From positions 62 to 64,061 of the IMG/VR virus record IMGVR_UViG_3300018495_000013: 64,000 nucleotides of DNA; one strand, 5' to 3'. How positions within the stretch are numbered: position 1 is the first letter of the stretch; each line of letters starts with the position of its first letter. The notes beneath the pieces are model-generated. The model had not been told where the DNA came from. It did no database searches and worked only from the letters and a program-made list of their open reading frames with translations. Below are positions 2,076 to 35,599 of the stretch, one piece after another. Origin of the DNA: a virus. Lineage: Duplodnaviria; Caudoviricetes. The translations under genes and the position numbers were made by a program.

Positions 2076-2146
2076 GCAAGACGGCAAAAATTAACACTAT
2101 GTAAATAGTGTTACGGAAGTCCTTAAAAATTTGTCAAGATTTTTTT

Positions 2147-2175
2147 AAGGACTTTCCAAAGCCGTTGCGTAAGAT
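2147..2175 (+). promoter_or_regulatory. Phage activator-type promoter, copy 1
   Basis: AAGGACTTT-N11-GCG-TAAGAT; the box is also one arm of the inverted repeat 2117-2128/2143-2154. Confidence 0.55.
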
Positions 2176-2257
2176 TAACGGCAAGACCCAAACGAAGTCC
2201 ACGACTTTCACAAGTCAAGGCATATTAAAAAACTATAAAACACAAAGGAGCAGACTT

Positions 2258-3166
2258 ATGGCAAATGTAAATGTTTACGAACTTGTTACTAACAGAATTA
2301 TCGAGCAACTTAATCAAGGTATTATACCTTGGCAAAAGCCTTGGAAATGTAGCGTTTCCATAAACGGCAAAATCAATCTTGGCGGAGTAGCATTTAACCG
2401 CGTTTCTAAGCAAGTGTATTCACCCTTGAATCAAATGCTCTTATCAAGAGTAGGCGAGTACGCGAGTTTCAAGCAATGGAAAGACCTTGGTGGAAGTATC
2501 AAGAAGGGAGCGAAAGCGGAAGTCGTTGTTTTTTGGAAGTGGCTGGAAGTACCAAAGGCAGAAAATGAACTAGCGGAGGACGAAGAACTAGGCGCATTGA
2601 AAAAAATACCCTATTTGCGTTATAATCAAGTCTTTCATATAGACGATATTGACGGAGTAAAGCCCCTTGACTTAAAGAAAATTCAAGGCGAAAAACCTAG
2701 CGAGTTTGAAAGTCAAGAAAACGCGGAGAATATTATCAAAGACTATTCTATACGCGAAAAAATAGCAATACGCTATGGCGGTGATAGAGCGTATTATTCC
2801 CCTAATGCAGATATGATTCAACTACCTTTCCGCGAGCAGTTTGGCAAGAATCAAGCAGAATTCTACTCCACCGCTTTCCACGAAATCGTGCATAGTACGG
2901 GCGCAAAACATAGACTTGACCGCTTGAACGGAACTGCATTTTTCGGTAACGAAGAATACTCCAAAGAAGAACTTGTGGCAGAGATAGGAGCAAGCGGTAT
3001 GTTAAATCTACTAGGCATAGAAACTCCAAAGAGTTTTAAGAACTCCGTTGCCTATATTCAAAGTTGGATAAAGGCACTCCAAAACGATATCCGTATGATA
3101 GTTTATGCAAGTGCAAGGGCGGAAAAAGCGATAGCCTATATTTTAGGCGAAAAGCAAGGGGAATAA
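2258..3166 (+). CDS. ardC: ArdC-like antirestriction/ssDNA-binding protein with zincin-like C-terminal domain
   Basis: N-terminal YELVTNRIIEQL..GIIPWQKPW, Y...NQMLL, FKQWKDLGG; C-terminal HEIVH and YSKEELVAE motifs; SD AAGGAG before ATG 2258. Confidence 0.88.
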   Translation: MANVNVYELVTNRIIEQLNQGIIPWQKPWKCSVSINGKINLGGVAFNRVSKQVYSPLNQMLLSRVGEYASFKQWKDLGGSIKKGAKAEVVVFWKWLEVPKAENELAEDEELGALKKIPYLRYNQVFHIDDIDGVKPLDLKKIQGEKPSEFESQENAENIIKDYSIREKIAIRYGGDRAYYSPNADMIQLPFREQFGKNQAEFYSTAFHEIVHSTGAKHRLDRLNGTAFFGNEEYSKEELVAEIGASGMLNLLGIETPKSFKNSVAYIQSWIKALQNDIRMIVYASARAEKAIAYILGEKQGE

Positions 3167-18068: not shown

Positions 18069-18785
18069 ATGTTAGAAAAATACCTAAACAAAATAACTTG
18101 TGGCGATAGTTATGAGTTGATAAAGGAATTGCCAGATAAGAGTGTTGATTGTGTTTATACCGACATACCCTATTTGTATTGTAATGGTGGAGTAGGACAT
18201 AGCGAAATGTGTGTACGAACTGCGCGAAAAAAAGAAGAATTAAAAGAAATTAGCAATGGCATTGACTACTCAATTCTTGATGAATTTAAGCGTGTATGCA
18301 AGAAAGTAAATATCTTTATTTGGTGTAGCAAAATGCAACTTCTTGATATTATGAAATGGGGGGGGGAGTACAACACAGACTTGTTAGTATGGTGTAAAAC
18401 AAACCCAACACCACAAACAAATAATGTATGGTTGCCTGACCTTGAATATTGTATTCATATAAGAGAGAAAGGCGTACCATTAAACGATGGATATGACCTA
18501 AAAAGCAAGTGGTATATTACACCTGCTAACAAACAAGACAAGGATAGATTTAATCATCCTACAATCAAACCATTGCCACTTGTAAAAAGACACTTATTGC
18601 ACGCAACTCAACCAAATGATATTGTGCTTGATACCTTTGGTGGCGTTGCGACAACGGCTGTTGCCTGTCAAGAAATAGGAAGAAATTTCATATTGTTTGA
18701 AATAGAGCAAAAATGGTGTGATATTGGAAAAGATAGACTAAATAACATTGATGCAAACGGACAAACTTGTTTATTTTTAAATTAA
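18069..18785 (+). CDS. N4/N6 DNA methyltransferase (beta class)
   Basis: TDIPY (DPPY variant), HPTIKP, VLDTFGGVATT; internal G9 tract at 18358-18366. Confidence 0.85.
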   Translation: MLEKYLNKITCGDSYELIKELPDKSVDCVYTDIPYLYCNGGVGHSEMCVRTARKKEELKEISNGIDYSILDEFKRVCKKVNIFIWCSKMQLLDIMKWGGEYNTDLLVWCKTNPTPQTNNVWLPDLEYCIHIREKGVPLNDGYDLKSKWYITPANKQDKDRFNHPTIKPLPLVKRHLLHATQPNDIVLDTFGGVATTAVACQEIGRNFILFEIEQKWCDIGKDRLNNIDANGQTCLFLN

Positions 18786-23183: not shown

Positions 23184-23212
23184 TTGACAGGTGTCGGTTC
23201 TTCGTGTATAAT
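23184..23212 (+). promoter_or_regulatory. Sigma70 promoter of the recombinase operon
   Basis: TTGACA-N17-TATAAT. Confidence 0.85.
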
Positions 23213-23242
23213 GTTATCAAACCCATTAAAAAGGAGAGAGAA

Positions 23243-23992
23243 ATGGCAAGAGTTAAAAGAAAAATCAAACACGCGCTTAAACCAGAACAAGTGTTGGCAC
23301 TATTAAAACCTTTAGAAAATTCTAGTATTGCAACCAATGTTCGTGATTATGCTGCGTTTGTTATTATGTGGCGTTGTGGAGCAAGAGCAAACGAAATATC
23401 AAAGTTAAGAATGAATAATATTGATATTGCCAATAGGACAATTAGAATAGTAGAAAGTAAAAGTGATGATAGAATCATTATACTAGACGATTTTGCTATT
23501 GCAAAACTTGAAGAATGGCTCAAGATTAGACCTAAATATGCAAGCAAGAGAAACCCATTTGTTTTTTGCATCGCTTCTAACCGAAAAGCGAACTTCAATG
23601 AGCATACAAAGAACATAGAAAAAGATTATGCAATGTTGGAGTATGATATTGCTAGAACTTATTGGACTATCAAATTGCATAAATTGTCCGAAAAGACAGG
23701 GGTATTCTTTGATGAAGGAAGTCGCGGACTAAAACCTGCACACGCCCATTGCTTGCGTACTACTTTTTGTACGGACGGACTGCGAGAAGGTTTTAACATT
23801 GTTGAACTACAAAGGCTTGGCGGTTGGAAATCATTGTCTAGCGTTCAATCTTATGCTCACGCATTTACCGATGAATTGGCTTTAAAAGTGTCGCAAAGGA
23901 AAAGCCCTATAACAACTACGGACGAACAGAAACAAAAAGAAATAGCACGCCTGCAAGCCGAGATTGACCGACTTAAAGGGGAAACTAAATAA
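23243..23992 (+). CDS. Tyrosine recombinase (catalytic domain only, Xer/Int-like)
   Basis: RDYAA...CGARANE, K, HCLR, LGGW, catalytic Y in VQSYAH; SD AAGGAG before ATG 23243. Confidence 0.9.
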   Translation: MARVKRKIKHALKPEQVLALLKPLENSSIATNVRDYAAFVIMWRCGARANEISKLRMNNIDIANRTIRIVESKSDDRIIILDDFAIAKLEEWLKIRPKYASKRNPFVFCIASNRKANFNEHTKNIEKDYAMLEYDIARTYWTIKLHKLSEKTGVFFDEGSRGLKPAHAHCLRTTFCTDGLREGFNIVELQRLGGWKSLSSVQSYAHAFTDELALKVSQRKSPITTTDEQKQKEIARLQAEIDRLKGETK

Positions 23993-25881
23993 TGAAACTA
24001 CGAAACATTTATATAAACAATTTTAGGGGAATAGAAGAAGTAAACATATCTTTTAAATTTGGTATGGATGCAAACATATATGGAGCAAATGGCGTTGGTA
24101 AAAGCACCATCGCAAAAGCAATAGAATGTTTATTTATGCCAGTAGATACGGAAGAAACAGAAGTATATAATGTTTATGATATGTTCGGCTCACAAGCGGA
24201 AATATGCGCGACAATAGAGCATTCTAGTAGAATAATAACGCTAAAAAAAGTATTTAATTCAAAGAGTGAAACAACTTGCTTTTTTGATGACGAAACTATT
24301 TCCTTATCGCAAGAAGAATATCAAGCAAAATTGGAACAAGAGATTGGCATAACTCCAGAAAAGTGGAAAGCGTTGACTTATCCCACAATGAAACTAACCG
24401 ATACCCAACTTTATAATATACTCGAACAATATGTTGAAGAAGTAAGCCTTAAAGATGTTATTTCTAGTGATAGGGAATTATTTACTTTAATAGACGAAAT
24501 TGATAGTATAGCAATCGAGCCTATTATATATAGGCTCAACGAAGATATAGAAAAACTAAAAGACGAAATAGGGTTTTGCGATAAACAATCACAAATTATA
24601 CAAACGAACATAAATAAAAGTGCAAACTTGCAAGATATTGAAGAATTGTTTAAGGCTAAAAAGGAACTAGACGATTTAAAAGACCAAAATAGCGACATTG
24701 ACTTTAAGATTACTAAACTAAAAGCACAATATTCTCCCGAAGTATTGACCGAGAAAATAAAACTTCTTAAACTAAACATTGAAACGCAGGAAGAAGTGTT
24801 GATTAAAAACAAAGAGAAAGCAAGAGCAACGCGAGAAAGAATATATAAAGATTCCGAGTTTGAGTGTGAAAAAGCAAAGAGAGTTTTTGAGAATATTGAA
24901 AACCAATTAAAGCAAAAGGAAGAAGAACTACCTGCTTTGGAAGAAAGATACAACAATGCTAAAATACTATATGACAGCATTGAAACAGGGGTAAGAAAGA
25001 ATTGCCATTATTGCGGAAAAAAATACGACCAAGATAGTAGGCATAGTGCTACTAATAAAGCAAAAAAGGAAATGCAATTAGTAGAAAAAGTAATAAAAGA
25101 AAAGCAATCTGAAATTTATAGGCTCAAAGACAAACTAGATAAAATGCAAGCAAGCATAACAAAAGCCGAAACCTTAATGCAGAAAGCATATAGTGATTGG
25201 TTGAACTTCGACTTCGTTGAAACTACCGAAAATGTTGAGTTGCTTAAATTAAGAACCGAATTGCGCAGAACAGAGAAAGAGCTTGAAAGACAATCAAAGA
25301 CAAAAGAAATAGATGATATGATTGCCGTCAAGGAAGCCAACTTAATCTTAATTAAAGAAAAGCAAACTCTTTTGGAAGTAAACAAGAACATACTTTACCA
25401 CCAAAAAGAATTGAAAAAAATATATAACAAGAAGAAAACATTAAATGAAAAACTAACGGAGTATGAGATTAAAAAAGAACTCTGCGAGAAGTTCAAAAAC
25501 AAACTCTATTCAATTCAAACGCAATCAATACAAAAGAAGTTTAAGGATATAAGAATAGAAATGGACTATGCCAATAAAAAAGCATATATCTATTCTCAAG
25601 ATAGTCTAGTCCAGTACAAAGACGAGAACACCGCAAAACAAATTGAAATTGCACTACGCTTTGCAGATAGCATAGCATTACTAGAACAATGGAACGGATT
25701 TGTTATATTAGACAATATTGAAAGCGTTGATTCTTTGTATTCAAACAGACAAATCATAACAATGCACAAACTTTCTAGCCAACCCATATTTAATGGATAC
25801 TGCGAACTAGACTACATAAAAAATTATGCAGACTGCACTATTCAAAATGGAAATAAAGAATTATTTGTAAAATATTATTAA
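23992..25881 (+). CDS. SMC/SbcC(Rad50)-like ATPase
   Basis: Walker A GANGVGKST, long coiled coil with central CHYC hook, Walker B VILDNIE. Confidence 0.85.
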   Translation: MKLRNIYINNFRGIEEVNISFKFGMDANIYGANGVGKSTIAKAIECLFMPVDTEETEVYNVYDMFGSQAEICATIEHSSRIITLKKVFNSKSETTCFFDDETISLSQEEYQAKLEQEIGITPEKWKALTYPTMKLTDTQLYNILEQYVEEVSLKDVISSDRELFTLIDEIDSIAIEPIIYRLNEDIEKLKDEIGFCDKQSQIIQTNINKSANLQDIEELFKAKKELDDLKDQNSDIDFKITKLKAQYSPEVLTEKIKLLKLNIETQEEVLIKNKEKARATRERIYKDSEFECEKAKRVFENIENQLKQKEEELPALEERYNNAKILYDSIETGVRKNCHYCGKKYDQDSRHSATNKAKKEMQLVEKVIKEKQSEIYRLKDKLDKMQASITKAETLMQKAYSDWLNFDFVETTENVELLKLRTELRRTEKELERQSKTKEIDDMIAVKEANLILIKEKQTLLEVNKNILYHQKELKKIYNKKKTLNEKLTEYEIKKELCEKFKNKLYSIQTQSIQKKFKDIRIEMDYANKKAYIYSQDSLVQYKDENTAKQIEIALRFADSIALLEQWNGFVILDNIESVDSLYSNRQIITMHKLSSQPIFNGYCELDYIKNYADCTIQNGNKELFVKYY

Positions 25882-29654: not shown

Positions 29655-30029
29655 TTAGTTCGCTATCCAATAACAATCTACGGCACTATTAGTGCAATCA
29701 AATATGTCATATATTATGCCATCTATCGAGCAAGTTAAATGACCTTCAATGCGAATAATAATTGTATTATTCGGATAAGAACTAGAGATTTCCCCAACAG
29801 TTTCACTTTGATTACAATATCTTATGGGTAGGTTGAAAACATCTGTTAATAGTTTTTCATAACACCACAAACACAATTTAGGACAACCGTGATGCTTCGC
29901 AACTAATGACAAAAGGTTTGCCGTTGCTGGATACGGAATCTTCAACGCAAGGGAGATTGCTCGTGTAACGCAATCTTCTTCTTCCGTTTGATTGGGGTTT
30001 CTATTGTAATAAGAAAAATTGTCAGTCAT
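29655..30029 (-). CDS. Putative papain-fold (Cys-His-Asp) peptidase
   Basis: DC20VTRAI...GH97LTC..YDIFD. Confidence 0.5.
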   Translation of the reverse strand: MTDNFSYYNRNPNQTEEEDCVTRAISLALKIPYPATANLLSLVAKHHGCPKLCLWCYEKLLTDVFNLPIRYCNQSETVGEISSSYPNNTIIIRIEGHLTCSIDGIIYDIFDCTNSAVDCYWIAN

Positions 30030-30038
30030 AGTTTTAGA

Positions 30039-30788
30039 TTATTCTTTAATGATACATTGATAGTATGCCCAAAGTTTTTGTTCTCCATCGCCCTTGTAAT
30101 CTTTATCCATTAGGAAGTCTTTTGCAAGGTCTAGGTAAAATTCAGGTCTATCTACGCCATACTTTTTAGCAGTAGTGCAATGGTCGGAATACTTCATATT
30201 CATAGCCATACACAAGACTTTATCGCCACCCATTTTATTGGCATCTACGCCCATTTGTTTAGCGATTTGAGAACATTGTTCTTTCGTATAATGTTTGCCC
30301 ATTGTGCCATCATTATTTTCTAGTTTGTGTTCCCAATCTTGTATATCGTGGTCGGTTAATTTGCCAAATTGCATTTCACCGTAATCTCTGCGCATATCAT
30401 AGCCATAATCCCTACGCATATCGTAACCGCTGTCGTAGCCATAATCATAGCCATAGTCATAGTTTTGCATATTATAGTCGCCGTAATCATAATTTTGCAT
30501 ATTATAGTCGCCACCACGCATATCGTATTCATATCTACGCATATCTTGTTGGTTTCTATTCATATCGCCATAATCTCTGCCACCACGACCACCTCGAGAA
30601 CCACGACCACCACCGCGTGCCATATCGCCCATACGCATTTCGTTTGGCATCATTCGGTTCATATCGCCTCTGTCGCCACGCGGTCTGCGAGTAGTAATAT
30701 ATCCACCACGAGAGCCATAAGGATTTCTACCATCGCCTTCTTGCATACCATATTTTGCCATAAGCATATCTTTTACAAATTGGTTCAT
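30039..30788 (-). CDS. RGG/YD-rich low-complexity protein with helical C-terminal domain
   Basis: RGG boxes; GDYNMQNYDY repeated with a 30-nt period (30457-30512). Confidence 0.8.
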   Translation of the reverse strand: MNQFVKDMLMAKYGMQEGDGRNPYGSRGGYITTRRPRGDRGDMNRMMPNEMRMGDMARGGGRGSRGGRGGRDYGDMNRNQQDMRRYEYDMRGGDYNMQNYDYGDYNMQNYDYGYDYGYDSGYDMRRDYGYDMRRDYGEMQFGKLTDHDIQDWEHKLENNDGTMGKHYTKEQCSQIAKQMGVDANKMGGDKVLCMAMNMKYSDHCTTAKKYGVDRPEFYLDLAKDFLMDKDYKGDGEQKLWAYYQCIIKE

Positions 30789-30790
30789 AG

Positions 30791-31234
30791 TTAAAACTCC
30801 TTACTTACATTAAATACCACGCTAGTAAAGGTTGCTCCTACTCCTACATTTTGCAAAGAGATGGTTTGTGCGATAGTAGAAGGATTGTTGAGAACACAAT
30901 CTTTATCCACAAGAATATAATAATCAATAACAAAGGTTCTAAATTCAGTAGTAGCGGTAGTTATGGTTTCAGTTGAAATTGCTCCGTCTACTACTTCGCC
31001 ATTCGCAAGAAGTTGTACGCTAACATCACCTGCAACAGTACCTGTGCCAACAAGAGTAGCAGTAATATGATAAATACCACTATGGTTTAGGGTAACATCT
31101 TGTGTGGTTCTTGAAAAAGCAGTAACCCCACAATTATTTTTCTTGCAATATCTACGATAAGTAGAGCCAAGATTGATAATGCCATCGGTAAGCACAGTTT
31201 GAGTGCCTACATTTTTAGTTCCTAAAAGTAACAT
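30791..31234 (-). CDS. BclA-C/C1q-like beta-sandwich protein
   Basis: TLNHSGIYHITATL..G.V.VQLLANG pattern. Confidence 0.5.
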   Translation of the reverse strand: MLLLGTKNVGTQTVLTDGIINLGSTYRRYCKKNNCGVTAFSRTTQDVTLNHSGIYHITATLVGTGTVAGDVSVQLLANGEVVDGAISTETITTATTEFRTFVIDYYILVDKDCVLNNPSTIAQTISLQNVGVGATFTSVVFNVSKEF

Positions 31235-31259
31235 ATTTTTTTCTCCTTTTAATAAAAGA

Positions 31260-31283
31260 AAGGGTAGGTTTTACCCTACCCTT
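31260..31283 (-). terminator. Hairpin within the cassette
   Basis: AAGGGTAGG/CCTACCCTT with a T-run on the minus strand. Confidence 0.6.
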
Positions 31284-31328
31284 GTAGGATAACTAATCCT
31301 TTTCGCAATAATAGTTATAATATGCTAA

Positions 31329-32006
31329 CTATTGAACATTTACTCCGCAAGCATTGTAGCAACAATTAGGGTTCGGTACTACATAAGCAGGGATGGGGCA
31401 AGTCTTGAGTTCGCTTAACAAGTAAGCACTTTGCTTATCGTTGCTAATTTGAGCCTTTAGACCAGCGTTTTCCGCTTGTAGACCAGCAATCTTTTCGGTA
31501 GTCAAGAAGTCAAGTATTGCACGAGTGTTGTCTTGTCCTGCACGAATAATGTCGCAAGTGTTTCTTTCGTTTGCATACTTCACATCTGCGATTGCAGCCC
31601 TAGTATCACAGCAGCATTGAGCGAGTTGGGTAGATAGAGCGTTGAAGCCTGCTTGGTTTTGGTAGCCAAGAGTACAGATAGCATTGTTTATACCTGCGAA
31701 GCCATTGGTTACGGTTTGGTTGATGCCACCGAAGCCTTGGTTGATAAAGTTTTGCATAGTTGCTTGACCGAGTAGAATGTCGTTGAGGTCGCTCATAATT
31801 TCGCTGTTTGCAAAACCTGCGGAAAGGTCGGCTTGGGTAGCGCAGTTGCCACGGTTGTTTCCACCACCAAAGCCAAAGCCATTACCACCGAACAAAGCAC
31901 CGATTAGTGCCAAACCAATAATCCAGGAAAAATCTCCCCAGCCATTGTAGCCGTTGTTTCCGTTAGTATTAGTTACAACTTGAGGTAATTCACCTTCAAT
32001 ATACAT
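31329..32006 (-). CDS. G/N/F-rich protein with CCC motif and coiled coil
   Basis: SD AAGGAG before ATG 32006; one hydrophobic segment, QLAQCCCDTR. Confidence 0.8.
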   Translation of the reverse strand: MYIEGELPQVVTNTNGNNGYNGWGDFSWIIGLALIGALFGGNGFGFGGGNNRGNCATQADLSAGFANSEIMSDLNDILLGQATMQNFINQGFGGINQTVTNGFAGINNAICTLGYQNQAGFNALSTQLAQCCCDTRAAIADVKYANERNTCDIIRAGQDNTRAILDFLTTEKIAGLQAENAGLKAQISNDKQSAYLLSELKTCPIPAYVVPNPNCCYNACGVNVQ

Positions 32007-32079
32007 AAGTTTAATCTCCTTTAATAATTTATTTATATATACAAGCAAATTCGCGCGCACTTTTGCTTGGAATATATTT

Positions 32080-32322
32080 TTAGTTGTTAAGTATTTGATT
32101 TATAATTTCAATCGTGCTTGCTTCCACACCATTTTGCATAGCCATTTGCATAATAAACTCTTTAGGGTTGCGACCATTAGCCATATTCTTTAATTGGGTA
32201 AGTTGTTGTTGCATTTGAGGGTTTTGTTGCAACATTGCGTTCATAATCATTTGAGGGTTTTTGCCTTGTTTTTTTGCCATAGCAATATATTGTAAAGTTT
32301 GATTTAATTGTGGGTTATTCAT
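32080..32322 (-). CDS. Q/N/M-rich small protein
   Basis: SD-led; GKNPQMIMNAMLQQNPQ. Confidence 0.8.
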   Translation of the reverse strand: MNNPQLNQTLQYIAMAKKQGKNPQMIMNAMLQQNPQMQQQLTQLKNMANGRNPKEFIMQMAMQNGVEASTIEIINQILNN

Positions 32323-32329
32323 AATTCAC

Positions 32330-32452
32330 CTACCTACTAACAATTACTTTTTTAAGAACTTCTATTTCTTTTTGCATTTCCTTGATTTGTTTTTCAAGTT
32401 CCTTTAGTTTCTTGGTACATTTACAAGTGCTATTATTAGTTGTGTTTTCCAT
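32330..32452 (-). CDS. Small coiled-coil protein (40 aa, not in the ORF track)
   Basis: MENTTNNSTCKCTKKLKELEKQIKEMQKEIEVLKKVIVSR, overlap-coupled. Confidence 0.6.
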   Translation of the reverse strand: MENTTNNSTCKCTKKLKELEKQIKEMQKEIEVLKKVIVSR

Positions 32453-32927
32453 TGTTTTGTTTACCCCCTATTTGTTTTTGTAGTGCTTCTATTTTGGAAA
32501 CAAGGTCATTGTATTGTTTGACGCTCACAAAACCGCCTAAATCTTCCTTTTTGGCAAAAATTGAATAATCCATCGTTTCTTTAGGCTCTTGCTTTTCTTC
32601 ATTAGGTTTTACTTCTTTGAAGTATTTAATGTATGATAGCCCATCATTATTGCAAATTTTTTCGTAGTACATATTATTAGACCTATCTATAAAAATGCCT
32701 TTTGCATTAGGGTTCAAGATATATGCCTCAGCTTCCTTCAAAGAGCCGTAGCCTACAAATTGGATAGGCATTTCAAATTGCATAGGTGTTTGTTGCGGTT
32801 GTGCCATTGGTTGTTGTTGTATAGGTTGTTGCCTATTATATTGTTGTCCTTGTCCGTACATATTGCCATAATAAGGTGATTGGTACGAGAAAGGAACATT
32901 GCCGTAGTTTCCATAATTGCCGTTCAT
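32436..32927 (-). CDS. Y/G/N/Q-rich N-terminus protein, first gene of the cassette
   Basis: SD AAGGAG; prion-like N-terminal 50 aa. Confidence 0.8.
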   Translation of the reverse strand: MNGNYGNYGNVPFSYQSPYYGNMYGQGQQYNRQQPIQQQPMAQPQQTPMQFEMPIQFVGYGSLKEAEAYILNPNAKGIFIDRSNNMYYEKICNNDGLSYIKYFKEVKPNEEKQEPKETMDYSIFAKKEDLGGFVSVKQYNDLVSKIEALQKQIGGKQNNGKHN

Positions 32928-32976
32928 AATTCAATCTCCTTTTTGTCGGGTTCTATGATAAAAAATTAGCAAAAAA

Positions 32977-33040
32977 GTCCACGATGTACAATGGACAAAT
33001 CGTGGACATTATTAAAAAAATCGTGGACAAATCGTGGACA
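32977..33040. promoter_or_regulatory. Operator array upstream of the cassette
   Basis: ATCGTGGAC at 32999, 33020 and 33031, inverted at 32977; the 17-mer TGGACAAATCGTGGACA occurs twice. Confidence 0.7.
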
Positions 33041-33051
33041 ATACAAAAAAA

Positions 33052-33075
33052 TAGCGTAGATTTTACTCTACGCTA
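33052..33075 (-). terminator. Terminator after the AgrB-HTH gene
   Basis: TAGCGTAGA-ttttac-TCTACGCTA with a T-run on the minus strand. Confidence 0.75.
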
Positions 33076-33090
33076 CTCTCGTAAGTATGA

Positions 33091-33648
33091 TTATGGGAAT
33101 AATTCCTTTTTCATACGATATTTAATTTTCTTTACGCTCTCCCTATCAACAGGATTGTCTTGTGTTTCACATAACCACAACCAAACATCTTTGGGCTTTT
33201 CTTTATCATAAAAGAATTTAATAGCCATTTCGGTTTTAAGTTCATTGTAGTTATGCAATTTACACAATGATATAAGTTTATCTTTCTCGCTAACAACTGG
33301 GTCAAATAACAAACTCTCCGCATACATTAATAAGGGTATTACTGCTCCTACTAAAACGCTCCATATAACACTTATGTTCTTTGGGATACAACCTACTGCT
33401 AGGAATAACACAAAGGTCATGCTAGAAACCAATATGCACTTTTGTGGTGTTGCAAAATGCTTTATCTTTGGTACAAGAAATCGTGTAGTAAAGAAACCAC
33501 CCAATATAAAGGTGGCTTCTAATAGTTTGCCTATCAATAAGCCAAAAGCAAGTATAATACCTATAATGCTAACATAACCTATTGTGGCAATAATATAGCC
33601 TTGTAGTTTAAGCCTTTGCTTCGGACTTAATTTCTTCAAGTCTTTCAT
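33091..33648 (-). CDS. AgrB-like membrane peptidase fused to a C-terminal HTH
   Basis: About 4 TM helices; E..F....F.T.R56......H64-x6-C71-xxx-S matches AgrB R/H/C spacing; LLMYA at the YAP position; sigma-region-4/LuxR-like tail. Confidence 0.65.
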   Translation of the reverse strand: MKDLKKLSPKQRLKLQGYIIATIGYVSIIGIILAFGLLIGKLLEATFILGGFFTTRFLVPKIKHFATPQKCILVSSMTFVLFLAVGCIPKNISVIWSVLVGAVIPLLMYAESLLFDPVVSEKDKLISLCKLHNYNELKTEMAIKFFYDKEKPKDVWLWLCETQDNPVDRESVKKIKYRMKKELFP

Positions 33649-33802
33649 CGATAGCCTTTAGTTCTTCGTCTATTTCGACATATCTCTTGTCAAGAGCAGT
33701 TATTTGTTCACGATTTTCACGCTTTTCTTTTAATAGTTCAGCCTTTCTCTTTTCAAGTCTTTGTTCTTCACTATGTTGAAACCAAGCGAAATATTTACTC
33801 AT
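33608..33802 (-). CDS. Candidate AgrD-like propeptide (leaderless)
   Basis: SD AAGGGGGT; MSKYFAWF then QHSEEQ and a charged coiled coil. Confidence 0.5.
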   Translation of the reverse strand: MSKYFAWFQHSEEQRLEKRKAELLKEKRENREQITALDKRYVEIDEELKAIDERLEEIKSEAKA

Positions 33803-34394
33803 TGTCTTTAACCCCCTTTTTAGATTTTATTAAGTTTGCGTAGCCGTAGTATAGCAAAGTCATAATAAGCACATCAAATGAATATATCATGCCGATAATG
33901 GAATTATTGTATATCTCTTGTGGAGTAGTTCCTTTTGTAAACATAGATATTACTTGGAACAAAATCAACAATACATTAGCCAATATTATTTTCCAATAGG
34001 ATTTCCAATCTTTCCCAATCAATATTGCAGGTAGTAGAATAACTTGCCATATATCGAATATAATTCCATACTCAAAGCACCATATTTTAATAGCAGTTCC
34101 ACCTAGTACGGTTATTATAACAAGTATCAATTCCCATATTTTATATCTATTTCTTTGTAGAATAGCAAGAGTAAAGAAATATACGGATACAAAACAATAT
34201 AAACCACTCATTATGTAGTCTAACCACAAGTGAGTATCTTTGTATTCGCATACCTTTATAAATGCCTCATTGTTACATATAATTTCAAAAAGGTTACCAC
34301 CGAACATCTTGATAACAAAGCATACTGCTAATGCTACCCAAGAAGCGATGATAACCCTTTTCAAGTATTTTATTTTGTCTATGTTGCAGTTCAT
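33795..34394 (-). CDS. Six-TM membrane protein, candidate peptide receptor or transporter
   Basis: Six hydrophobic segments in 199 aa; overlaps the propeptide start. Confidence 0.6.
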   Translation of the reverse strand: MNCNIDKIKYLKRVIIASWVALAVCFVIKMFGGNLFEIICNNEAFIKVCEYKDTHLWLDYIMSGLYCFVSVYFFTLAILQRNRYKIWELILVIITVLGGTAIKIWCFEYGIIFDIWQVILLPAILIGKDWKSYWKIILANVLLILFQVISMFTKGTTPQEIYNNSIIGMIYSFDVLIMTLLYYGYANLIKSKKGVKDNE

Positions 34395-34425: not shown

Positions 34426-34917
34426 CTAATCCTTATTTACCAATTTGTAGAATAAGTCCGCTTTTGTTTCTTCTTTTTCCGTTGTGTCAAGCAATTTTTC
34501 GGTTTCTTCAGCAACTTTTTTAGCGGTAAGTTTTCCTTGTTTGTATGCAGTATATAGGTTCTTTGCCCAATTTACAAACTTTTCCACAATCTTTCTAGGA
34601 GATTGGCAAAGGAATAGGTATACTCCTTGAGTCATAAATGCCGTAGATACTGCCTTAAATACAATAGTTCCAATAGACATATCTACATTATGTACATACA
34701 TAAATCCAAATGTTATACCTAGTGTTGCAATAAAAGCAGGAACAGCGTATTCGTATTCAAACTTCTTTTCATACTTTTGCTTACGAATGCGTATTATAAT
34801 ATACTTAATTGCACTTACAATAAGTACAACAACAAAACAGAGTATGAACAATGCTATATATAACGCCAAGTCGTTAGCAAAAATAAAACTTACGAATGAT
34901 TGTGCGCTTTCTAACAT
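34426..34917 (-). CDS. Holin-like 3-TM membrane protein
   Basis: Three hydrophobic segments, charged C-terminus, downstream of the tail fibres. Confidence 0.5.
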   Translation of the reverse strand: MLESAQSFVSFIFANDLALYIALFILCFVVVLIVSAIKYIIIRIRKQKYEKKFEYEYAVPAFIATLGITFGFMYVHNVDMSIGTIVFKAVSTAFMTQGVYLFLCQSPRKIVEKFVNWAKNLYTAYKQGKLTAKKVAEETEKLLDTTEKEETKADLFYKLVNKD

Positions 34918-34921
34918 AATT

Positions 34922-35269
34922 CTATTCCCCCTTTAGGTTTTGTATGAAAGTTTTTACTGAGCTAATTTCTGCATCAAACTTTATTCTTTCGTCTTTTTCT
35001 ACAAAGTCCATTGCTTTTTGCTTTAGCGATTCACATTTCGTATTGTAGTCCGTGTTGTAGCCGTTCACTTTTCTTGTGTATTCTTCGTGGGCTTCCTTGA
35101 TTGCCGCATCTCGAGCCTTTTGAAGTTCTAGGATTTCAGGCTCTACTGTGCTTGATAGATAGTCGGATTTTGCTTTCTCTAGTAGTTTCTCGTACTTCTT
35201 TTCAAGTTCGATAACAACAGATTCAGCATACTCGACAATGTTGCTCTTTGCTTGTTTGATTTGCTCCAT
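34922..35269 (-). CDS. Coiled-coil hypothetical protein
   Basis: SD-led; helical and charged. Confidence 0.7.
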   Translation of the reverse strand: MEQIKQAKSNIVEYAESVVIELEKKYEKLLEKAKSDYLSSTVEPEILELQKARDAAIKEAHEEYTRKVNGYNTDYNTKCESLKQKAMDFVEKDERIKFDAEISSVKTFIQNLKGE

Positions 35270-35326
35270 AGTTGTTTTGCTCCTTTATAATATATTATAG
35301 TGGGTTTGCGTAATTATTGTACTACT

Positions 35327-35599
35327 TTATAACAGTTTTGTCAACTCTCGTGTAATAATATCTACAAGCACTTCTCTTATGCGTGGTTCAGAAAAACCAA
35401 TAACAATGCCTGTAAACAACAATGCAAGAAACACCCAATATGAAGTAGTGCATATATTATAAAACATCTTGGCTGGGGCTTTAATACAATCTACCCCTAT
35501 TTGCTTTAATTGCGATTTATAATCGTTACTTAAAGCACTTCCAAATGTTCCTTCAAAATGTGTATTTTCTTTAGGCTTTCTTTTGAATATGTTTTTCAT
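35327..35599 (-). CDS. Single-TM hypothetical protein
   Basis: YWVFLALLFTGIVIGF segment. Confidence 0.6.
   Translation of the reverse strand: MKNIFKRKPKENTHFEGTFGSALSNDYKSQLKQIGVDCIKAPAKMFYNICTTSYWVFLALLFTGIVIGFSEPRIREVLVDIITRELTKLL

Follow-up and report, generated by a model that had tools for sequence, protein, structure and literature searches.

The Agr peptide systems are built around AgrB, a membrane protein with six TM helices and about 185-190 aa in its full form, which has so far been viewed as an enzyme devoted to maturation, working in every case with a kinase/response-regulator pair. AgrD, the small protein of these systems, is characterized by an amphipathic leader, a Cys (or Ser) located five residues ahead of the cut and a conserved acidic tail. 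Coupling of a DNA-binding output to membrane or peptide sensing without a phosphorelay is known from ToxR/CadC, from CylR1/CylR2 of Enterococcus and from the RRNPP/arbitrium systems, and the RRNPP receptors are soluble TPR proteins. In S. aureus AgrB, the catalytic residues are His77 and Cys84 (PMC10482373). Agr-type genes are also carried by a phage, since C. difficile phage phiCDHM1 (HG531805) carries agrD, agrB and agrC immediately behind the genes for holin and endolysin (PMC3901668).

Here we analyzed a complete 64-kb gut phage (record of 64,061 bp), of which the window, i.e., the whole stretch of DNA under study, covers 64,000 nucleotides. On its minus strand, positions 33091-34394 contain a trio of genes for a six-helix membrane protein (6TM), a small protein and an AgrB-type protein ending in an HTH domain (AgrB-HTH), behind which lie a strong terminator, a cluster of repeats and a cassette in the same orientation (Table 1). 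The trio resembles the Agr peptide system, to which it seems related, but it is wired differently and has no kinase. Our main reading, to which we give a probability of roughly 0.45, is that it encodes a transcription factor tethered to the membrane, with its activity coupled to processing of the small protein in the AgrB manner.

Table 1. Features of the locus, with positions in the window
Feature	Position	Strand	Description
Promoter-like site	35316..35344	minus	TTGACA, 17 nt, TACAAT (11/12); consensus scan only; upstream of the 115-aa gene
115-aa protein	34922..35269	minus	coiled coil, without family; first gene past the candidate promoter
163-aa protein	34426..34917	minus	three TM helices, charged tail, holin-like
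6TM gene	33795-34394	minus	199 aa (ORF list)
Small gene	33608-33802	minus	64 aa (ORF list), N-terminus MSKYFAWFQHSEEQ
AgrB-HTH gene	33091-33648	minus	185 aa (ORF list)
AgrB-type peptidase core	33298..33648	minus	residues 1-117; four TM helices; PF04647 match
Sigma-70 region-4-like HTH	33091..33297	minus	residues 118-185 and stop codon; fold match
Intrinsic terminator	33047-33080	minus	14-bp stem, directly past the AgrB-HTH stop; -19.6 kcal/mol, z -5.7
Phased TGTCCA repeats	32992..33041	minus	four copies (three TTGTCCA, the fourth ATGTCCA); spacing 11, 21, 11 bp
Second hairpin and U-run	32977..33008	minus	TTGTCCA copy in the loop
Extended -10-like elements	32955..32971	minus	TGcTAATTT, or TATCAT; for the downstream cassette
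Seven-gene cassette	29655..32927	minus	downstream of the trio; order conserved in relatives
Cassette gene		minus	Q/Y-rich, 163 aa (phrog_21718)
Cassette genes		minus	40 aa; 80 aa
Cassette gene		minus	TM protein, 243 aa (phrog_16490)
Cassette gene		minus	147 aa, weakly BclA_C-like
Cassette gene		minus	DUF7841, 249 aa
Cassette gene		minus	124 aa (phrog_3754)

Gene arrangement and relatives of the trio

A preliminary description of this DNA had reported three overlapping minus-strand genes with neither kinase nor response regulator, followed by a terminator and a seven-gene cassette, and all of this was borne out. The stop of the 6TM gene and the start of the small gene share an 8 nt overlap (ATGAGTAA), and the AgrB-HTH gene starts 41 nt within the small gene. 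A profile search of the complete 64,061-bp phage record gave no match to HATPase_c, HATPase_c_5, LytTR or AgrD, and host-encoded partners are possible. The promoter-like site upstream of the 115-aa gene, in a region that the consensus scan found not to be enriched in such sites overall, may mark the start of a five-gene unit that would end at the terminator after the AgrB-HTH gene. The window copy of the 163-aa holin-like protein had no significant family match; in the relatives a holin-like gene lies at or near its position, and in locus L005 a Phage_holin_6_1 (PF09682) gene is found two genes upstream of the 6TM gene. No lysin was recognized in the cassette, and these phages are without a recognizable endolysin. 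A PDB sequence search with the 124-aa and DUF7841 proteins returned no informative match.

The synteny of the trio, which the preliminary description had named as a check to be made, proved to be conserved: the same order recurs in 15 other loci that were fetched (L001, L003, L005, L007-L014 and L016-L019), among which the identity of 6TM falls to as low as 21-31%. When the DNA of the window was compared with that of L019, the trio was the only long aligned stretch (76% over 1290 nt), apart from two short weak matches downstream. The possibility of a hypervariable island of the Agr type was rejected, because divergence in the flanking genes equals that in the trio, and the unusual feature is the strong conservation of the HTH. 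The whole trio measures 1.3 kb.

Neither blastn nor tblastn gave a match among the INPHARED phages, IMG/VR contained one relative apart from the window's own record, and the GTDB genomes contained three phage-sized MAG contigs labeled Clostridia, Bacteroidaceae and Acutalibacteraceae, labels so discordant that they provide no reliable host. The sequencing runs with this stretch were animal faeces or gut metagenomes only, and there was no RNA run among those listed. NCBIfam and PADLOC searches gave nothing, and a literature search found no description of an AgrB-HTH fusion.

The AgrB-HTH protein and its two partners

Sequence comparison supports the presence of a truncated AgrB catalytic core in the 185-aa protein, and endopeptidase/cyclase activity is predicted for it. 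The window copy scored 23.0 bits against PF04647, which is borderline at the curated cut-off of 23, and 23.3 bits in a six-frame search. The match is partial, covering profile positions 28-133 of 185; positions 134-185, the last third of AgrB, are absent from the protein, and the structure model shows four TM helices followed by the HTH instead of a full six-TM AgrB body. All of the 20 relatives tested matched PF04647 at E<=0.01 (best 3e-9), and the AgrB-like partners of distant 6TM members scored 16.8, 31.1 (L013) and 22.9 bits. His64 and Cys71 are invariant in 104/104 homologues, with the 7-residue spacing of AgrB, and the pattern R-x(6-9)-H-x6-C is found in 96/104. These residues and Arg56 lie in a positively charged loop joining TM helices 2 and 3, which we read as cytoplasmic, and the R/H/C residues align with those of phiCDHM1 AgrB (hhalign E 2e-4). 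The cut-off reached, the invariant dyad and this alignment together uphold the original designation of the protein as AgrB-like. A sequence search of the PDB found no AgrB structure.

At E<=0.01, 161 AgrB-HTH proteins were collected. A search for shorter forms returned only pieces of 52-92 aa, most of them about the size expected of an internal start, and a search for longer forms, which is weak evidence, found none. Matches of 110-137 aa were rejected as stand-alone forms, being N-terminally truncated gene calls.

The C-terminal HTH, part of the preliminary description as well, is backed by fold matches to sigma region 4. Its model consists of four helices with the recognition helix last (pLDDT 87-95 for residues 121-185), and VIA-align matched it to SigF, BldN, SigH, SigR r4, SigW, SigE r4-DNA, KorA and DosR with Z 5.5-6.6 and rmsd 1.7-3.4 A over 50-62 residues. 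More than 15 chains of sigma region 4 were among the matches (Z 5.5-6.5, rmsd 2.0-3.4 A), where a Z of about 6 for a 65-residue helical domain is a value that common helical arrangements also reach. When four C-terminal domains were searched, no match to Sigma70_r4, r4_2, GerE or another Pfam HTH/sigma family was obtained at E<=10; one distant relative had a weak HTH_30 match (E 0.0066). A short linker with a conserved LLFDP motif joins the HTH to the last TM helix. Across the core group its identity is 64-79% versus 24-61% for the AgrB core, and it is the best-conserved segment of the entire neighborhood, which points to regulatory output as the main constraint. The window copy has Arg169 at a position occupied by Trp in at least 90% of the relatives, including a 99%-identical copy, and for this reason the window copy of AgrB-HTH may be impaired.

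For the 199-aa protein, the structure model (pLDDT 92, pTM 0.84) shows six long membrane helices, as had been proposed, and the charge distribution predicts an N-in/C-in topology. The first external loop in this prediction is conserved (GGN.FEI ... CEY.D), and conservation among four close relatives is highest in a predicted external loop. The family is large, with 431 clusters (50% identity) at E<=1e-3, and 6TM belongs to no family in Pfam, PHROG, NCBIfam or PADLOC; no consistent Pfam match emerged from 68 family members, and an atlas search returned unnamed clusters only. The further proposal that 6TM is an AgrC-like sensor found no support. Its profile aligned with phiCDHM1 AgrC with a probability of 0.2% in hhalign, Foldseek against the PDB gave nothing at E<=0.001, and a wide VIA search matched generic bundles of the rhodopsin/GPCR type with a top Z of 7.0, the noise level for helical bundles.

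The small protein is encoded upstream of the AgrB-HTH gene, and homologous small ORFs occupy the identical position in all the loci. It begins with Met-Ser/Gly, after which come an aromatic/hydrophobic head (about 8 residues) and a charged coiled coil; the head varies in sequence and keeps its outline. Residue 2 is Gly or Ser in 11/11 aligned copies and in nearly all fused copies, and a Gly or Ser at this position favors removal of the Met, leaving a free small N-terminus. Right behind the head, an acidic, E-L-containing stretch recalls the context of AgrB cleavage. This hydrophobic-then-acidic outline is all that is shared with AgrD: the protein did not match the AgrD profile (PF05931), the aligned copies have no conserved Cys nor a Cys/Ser at a fixed ring position, and neither an N-terminal amphipathic leader nor a signal peptide was found in it. 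Matches to haemolysin, bacteriocin and spanin families in PHROG (E ~0.005-0.02) were not significant and were driven by the coiled coil. In 30/150 of the 6TM clusters listed (about 20%), the small protein forms an in-frame extension of the 6TM C-terminus, as would be expected of a partner or substrate in the cytoplasm rather than of a propeptide that is freely secreted. We consider it a possible substrate of the AgrB core, or a partner to it.

Terminators, repeats and candidate promoter before the cassette

The preliminary description had placed an operator array between the trio and the cassette, and only part of this stands. Positions 32976-33040 contain three exact copies of TGTCCACGAT and one inverted copy, and in the window 8 matches to TGTCCACGAT with at most one mismatch were found versus 1.7 expected, a number that 0/100 shuffles reached. 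Base pairing between the inverted copy and the direct copy closest to it forms the second hairpin, with a U-run behind it; in the relatives, its homologue is the sole terminator-like hairpin past the AgrB-HTH gene. In the alignment of this hairpin among relatives, 86% of cells are paired, 5/9 pairs have changed on both sides and G-U pairs are common. An RNA hairpin with a U-run and covariation indicates a terminator, and since the inverted repeat behaves in this way, its conservation needs no DNA-binding protein.

The phased TTGTCCA repeats, on the other hand, are kept as candidate binding sites of the fused HTH, as judged from their clustering and recurrence. Three of the five TTGTCCA copies in the 64-kb window lie within this one 50-bp spacer, and TTGTCC pairs spaced by 11 bp are also present downstream of the AgrB-HTH gene in L001, L005, L010 and L019. 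The putative promoter of the cassette has an extended -10 and a poor -35, i.e., it is of the activator type, and a T-run with TGnTAtAAT was aligned by eye at a fixed distance in eight other loci.

Possible roles and relation to known systems

According to our main reading, the trio would work as a single module, with a membrane-tethered transcription factor at its center. AgrB-HTH would hold its AgrB core in the membrane and the sigma-70 region-4-like HTH at its end in the cytoplasm, with the small protein as substrate or ligand of the core. The aromatic head of the small protein would lie at the inner membrane face, beside the 6TM partner or covalently joined to it, and the AgrB core would cut near residue 10, at the junction of the hydrophobic head and the acidic, E-L-containing stretch. 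The state of the membrane complex would then decide the action of the HTH on the phased TTGTCCA sites before the extended -10 promoter of the cassette. We infer the cleavage of the small protein and its cut site, the binding of the HTH to the repeats, the direction of regulation and any export or sensing of a peptide; a role in cell-density or phage-to-phage communication would be purely conjectural.

Such communication would take the following form. The AgrB core would free an N-terminal peptide of about 9-10 residues, perhaps cyclised head-to-tail, which after export would be sensed by the external loop of 6TM and switch the tethered HTH, and thereby the terminal cassette, so that maker, receptor and output of a kinase-free quorum or arbitrium-like circuit would be encoded in three overlapping genes. 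All that speaks for the AgrB core and for the conserved module agrees with it, as do the variable head of kept outline, which is expected of a specificity element, the free small N-terminus suggested by residue 2, and the conservation peak of 6TM in the predicted external loop among four close relatives; in addition, the trio follows a holin-like gene as phiCDHM1 agrDBC follows holin and endolysin. We nevertheless find it rather unlikely. Signal peptide, exporter and likeness to AgrD or AgrC are absent, no lysogeny switch was identified beside the trio, and the 6TM loop is conserved whereas AgrC sensors are hypervariable. Moreover, the fusions to the cytoplasmic C-terminus of 6TM (about 20%) would require a second cut or internal initiation to release a peptide. 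These fusions rather suggest a stable complex at the cytoplasmic face, consistent with a switch that stays within the cell: the AgrB core would cut its own linker (LLFDP) or be gated by the 6TM/small-protein complex, and the sigma-4-like domain, freed late in infection, would turn on the terminal cassette, which may be lysis-related, with no peptide leaving the cell. Regulated proteolysis of membrane-anchored anti-sigma/sigma pairs would be the analogue, and the position of the HTH behind the last TM helix and a short conserved linker, its sigma-4-like fold, and the location of the trio between a holin-like gene and a cassette with an activator-type promoter are in line with it. However, we know of no self-cleavage by AgrB, the cassette has no recognized lysin, and the acidic/E-L stretch of the small protein, which resembles the C-terminal part of AgrD, would be left unexplained, making this switch doubtful as well.

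It is improbable, in our estimate, that the product is itself the effector, i.e., that maturation of the small protein by the AgrB core yields a membrane-active or antibacterial peptide (RiPP/bacteriocin-like, a lysis or exclusion factor), with 6TM as exporter or immunity protein and the HTH serving autoregulation only. Although the aromatic head is membrane-seeking and polytopic immunity or export proteins often accompany peptide-maturation enzymes, pore formers would be expected to have more than the 8-10 residues of this head, and the weak PHROG matches that would favor such a peptide are not significant and originate from the coiled coil. The higher conservation of the HTH than of the enzyme core also argues for a regulatory output. 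Finally, the adjacency of the trio could reflect nothing but descent from one phage lineage, the AgrB likeness being that of a degenerate, non-catalytic membrane anchor. All the loci are phage-like and share their flanking gene order, and for this reason the synteny is not independent evidence as convergent contexts would be. However, His and Cys are invariant in 104/104 homologues while the surrounding TM sequence falls to 24% identity, the genes of 6TM and the small protein become fused, and the trio is kept while its flanks diverge past DNA alignment, so that this explanation is already disfavored and very improbable.

In these phages, an AgrB catalytic core has been joined to a DNA-binding domain and, in hundreds of contigs of gut phages, is passed on together with two as yet unnamed partners. 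If the state of the AgrB enzyme controls the HTH, this would be a new and very compact coupling of peptide processing to transcription, and release of a peptide, if it occurs, would add a third type of phage communication to arbitrium and the hijacking of host quorum sensing. The trio also provides a first functional handle on the large orphan 6TM family and on the control of the last cassette in these phages.

Among known systems, ToxR/CadC, CylR1/CylR2 and RRNPP/arbitrium serve as a working analogy to the trio without homology, and none of them has an AgrB-type peptidase as its membrane part. Sigma-70 region 4 or ECF domain 4 and the LuxR-GerE HTHs (8jzt SigF, 5fgm SigR r4, 2h27 SigE r4-DNA, 3c3w DosR) are four-helix domains with the recognition helix last, like the model of the HTH described here, which differs in having no profile match and no sigma region 2 and in being tethered to a membrane enzyme. 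The likeness to AgrB and AgrD of agr (PF04647; PMC10482373) consists of the membrane cysteine-peptidase core, with its invariant His...Cys dyad at 7-residue spacing, and of a small co-transcribed protein in which a hydrophobic segment precedes an acidic, E-L-containing tail. In contrast to the six helices of AgrB, there are four here (profile positions 28-133 of 185) and the C-terminal third has given way to an HTH; unlike AgrD, the small protein is encoded upstream and has no leader helix, AgrD match or conserved Cys; and the AgrC histidine kinase and AgrA LytTR regulator of the AgrBDCA system have no counterpart in the phage. With phiCDHM1 the locus shares phage-borne Agr-type genes that follow the lysis region, represented here by the holin-like gene. 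However, where the AgrB of phiCDHM1 is full-length (122.8 bits) and is accompanied by a recognizable AgrD and the kinase AgrC, the present phage has a truncated AgrB joined to an HTH in a kinase-free arrangement.

The trio and its genomic setting

The window is nearly all of a 64,061-bp IMG/VR virus record that has direct terminal repeats and is rated complete. GC is about 34%. The leftward half holds the genes of a virion with a long tail: terminase, the major head protein, tail fibres and a tape measure of 1212 aa. Because the genes carry Shine-Dalgarno sequences of the AAAGGAGA type, we infer a Firmicutes-type host; the host labels of MAGs contradict one another. Three overlapping minus-strand genes encode a six-TM protein (6TM), a small protein and an AgrB-like protein with a C-terminal HTH (AgrB-HTH). 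The stop codon of 6TM and the start codon of the small gene overlap in ATGAGTAA, and the AgrB-like gene starts 41 nt inside the small gene. Given a promoter-like site and a terminator after the third gene, the trio may close a unit of five genes, as judged from consensus matches.

Features of the window discussed in the text
Feature	Position	Strand	Remark
352-aa protein	2108-3166		strong match to anti-restriction PHROG family phrog_7245 (E 4.8e-70)
339-aa ORF	17037-18056		residues ~3-237 (N-terminal part) match replisome-organiser/DnaD-like families; 188-339 (C-terminal part) a DNA methyltransferase family
Second methyltransferase	18069-18785		after the 339-aa ORF
Short (262 aa) tyrosine-recombinase-like protein	23204-23992		phrog_1/216, E ~5e-27
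SbcC-like ATPase	23992-25881		directly after the 262-aa gene
Cassette, seven genes	29655-32927	minus	downstream of the trio
124-aa cassette protein	29655-30029		phrog_3754, Cys/His-containing; no PDB or Pfam match
249-aa protein	30039-30788		RGG/DYGYD low-complexity half, C-terminal DUF7841 domain (E 4.6e-15)
147-aa protein	30791-31234		adjoins the DUF7841 gene; weak BclA C-terminal-domain match (E 0.0016)
Inverted repeat	32977-33008
Terminator, 14-bp stem			directly after AgrB-HTH, the third trio gene
AgrB-HTH gene, 185 aa	33091-33648	minus
Codon 169 of AgrB-HTH	33142-33144		AGG (Arg) in the window allele
Small-protein gene, 64 aa	33608-33802	minus
6TM gene, 199 aa	33795-34394	minus
163-aa three-TM holin-like gene		minus	between the 115-aa coiled-coil gene and the trio
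115-aa coiled-coil gene		minus	after the tail-fibre genes, upstream of the 163-aa gene
Holin-like genes	34426-34917, 35327-35599		the first is the 163-aa three-TM gene
Promoter-like site, near-consensus (11/12)	35316-35344		consensus match

Order and overlaps recurred in 15 other loci fetched for comparison (L001, L003, L005, L007-L014 and L016-L019; L011 ends at a contig edge), bearing out the synteny expected in the preliminary description, and the order was kept even on contigs found via 6TM proteins just 21-31% identical to that of the window. When the DNA was compared with L019, the trio was the only long aligning stretch (76% over 1290 nt), with two short weak matches elsewhere, in the downstream cassette. 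Identity within the core group was highest for the HTH (64-79%), against 24-61% for the AgrB core, 31-54% for 6TM, 29-53% for the small protein and 19-44% for flanking genes, which indicates that the trio is a module most strongly constrained in its putative output domain. With such values for the flanks and the HTH, it is not a hypervariable island in conserved surroundings of the kind known from agr.

Elsewhere in the window, the two parts of the 339-aa ORF suggest a fusion of replisome-organiser/DnaD-like and methyltransferase sequences, and the tyrosine-recombinase-like protein, in this genome with direct terminal repeats, may act as an integrase, as a dimer resolvase or in another role.

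The three proteins

Pfam AgrB matched the 185-aa protein with 23.0 bits, exactly the curated cut-off (profile positions 28-133 of 185), and all 20 aligned relatives (best E-value 3e-9); the far more divergent partners beside distant 6TM homologues also matched (16.8, 31.1 and 22.9 bits). His64 and Cys71 were conserved in 100% of 104 full-length homologues, and they are spaced by seven residues, as are His77 and Cys84, the catalytic dyad of AgrB (PMC10482373). Profile comparison aligned Arg, His and Cys of the protein with AgrB of phage phiCDHM1 (E 2e-4). In the model, four TM helices precede four short ones (pLDDT 87-95). The dyad sits in the loop joining helices 2 and 3, which is positively charged and which we read as cytoplasmic. 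Some two thirds of an AgrB are present, and an HTH takes the place of the rest; a fusion of the enzyme to an HTH had been proposed from the sequence.

Pfam gave no match for the C-terminal domain (residues 118-185). An all-against-representatives structural search matched it repeatedly with sigma-70 region 4 (SigF, BldN, SigH, SigR, SigW, SigL, sigma-28, SigD, and also SigA domain 4 and SigE region 4 on DNA), and with KorA and the LuxR-type DosR and VpsT. Since the Z scores of 5.4-6.6 (rmsd 1.7-3.4 Å, 50-63 residues) are about the maximum for a 65-residue domain, yet also in the range of common helical arrangements, the modelled HTH is called sigma-4-like by fold, not a family member. At position 169, the start of the putative recognition helix, Trp is found in at least 90% of relatives and in P0001, a protein of other contigs with 99% identity; Arg169 may be a polymorphism weakening the window's copy.

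The 199-aa protein was modelled with very high confidence (pLDDT 92) as six long membrane helices and belongs to a large, nameless family (431 clusters at 50% identity with E<=1e-3). Pfam, PHROGs, NCBIfam and PADLOC gave no match and a fold search with the model no meaningful one; the likeness to an AgrC sensor that had been suggested was not borne out by comparison with phiCDHM1 AgrC. In-frame fusions with the small protein occurred in 30 of the 150 best 6TM clusters, are seen on contigs in L009 and L018, and keep a Met-Gly/Ser-aromatic start at every junction. We read the charge distribution of 6TM as N-in/C-in, and therefore the fused small protein would begin on the cytoplasmic side of the membrane, where the AgrB dyad and the HTH would also lie.

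Small proteins have 42-64 residues and a common outline: Met and then Gly or Ser, a head of about eight hydrophobic or aromatic residues (MSKYFAWFQ, MGRFFGWLQ, MGIWGWLWL, MGGFWVLFA), at position 10 a residue that is small or polar, next a segment like DDVAEL or SEEQRL in which Leu16 is nearly invariant, and a charged coiled coil. An assignment of the 64-aa protein to AgrD was not supported: the profile search gave no match to AgrD, and neither a leader nor a conserved Cys was seen. Glu34 and Leu41 of the AgrD tail are required for AgrB cleavage (PMC10482373), and the passage from hydrophobic head to acidic, E-L-containing tail resembles that context, as a resemblance only. The small protein of one distant trio (L013:5597-5776) begins MGKAGKWWFGG and continues into a hydrophobic TM-like segment where the others have a charged coiled coil; P0189, a fused cluster, resembles it.

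Spacer and downstream cassette

The inverted repeat has a homologous hairpin at the corresponding position of eight other loci. In the alignment 86% of cells pair, versus 21-49% with the partner slid, both partners have changed in 5 of 9 pairs, and G-U pairing is common. As RNA, the hairpins have folding energies of -12.7 to -17 kcal/mol (z -3.5 to -6.2), with a U-run after them. In several relatives no other terminator-like hairpin was noticed there. The repeat is a terminator, so this part of the 'operator array' of the preliminary description falls away; the direct repeats, unexplained by the terminator, remain candidate sites. They comprise four TGTCCA copies spaced 11, 21 and 11 bp; the cluster holds 3 of the 5 TTGTCCA copies of the 64 kb, and TTGTCC pairs 11 bp apart occur at the same place in L001, L005, L010 and L019. 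Downstream are a T-run and an extended -10 (TGnTAtAAT-like) with a poor -35. By our count the last TTGTCN is 24 nt from the -10 hexamer in most loci, which would put the site near -41, and the arrangement looks like that of activator-dependent promoters. The obvious candidate for binding the direct repeats is the HTH encoded next to them, which is highly conserved.

A DUF7841 gene with a gene of ~122 aa after it recurs in the relatives L003, L009, L013 and L019. No endolysin was recognised among the window genes scanned, and the genes around the holin in related loci gave no lysin Pfam family.

Possible function and known systems

We tentatively favour, with a probability of about 0.45, a membrane-tethered regulator coupled to AgrB-type processing: the AgrB core would process the small protein inside a complex that includes 6TM, the processing state would set the activity of the tethered HTH, and the HTH would act on the promoter of the cassette that follows. 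The fusions argue for a complex at the cytoplasmic face. The alternatives differ in the source of the information reaching the HTH. That it is a released peptide, sensed from outside, seems unlikely; the fusions speak somewhat against a freely secreted propeptide, although in our reading the Met kept at the junction and the purine-rich codons before it would permit internal initiation. It is also doubtful that the HTH is freed cell-autonomously, quite improbable that the peptide product has an activity of its own, and hardly to be expected that the genes are merely adjacent by inheritance. In line with the kinase-free system that had been claimed, the complete phage genome contains no kinase or LytTR regulator; the host may encode one.

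Agr is the closest known system, and among phages phiCDHM1 comes nearest: its agrC-agrB-agrD genes lie directly after those for holin and endolysin (PMC3901668). Unlike the trio, phiCDHM1 has a complete AgrB, a kinase and an AgrD that can be recognised. The trio lacks three features of agr membership, namely the full AgrB body, AgrD and AgrC/AgrA, and should not be classed among agr systems. A literature search found no description of the trio, whose domain architecture and set of genes, based on an AgrB core, are new.
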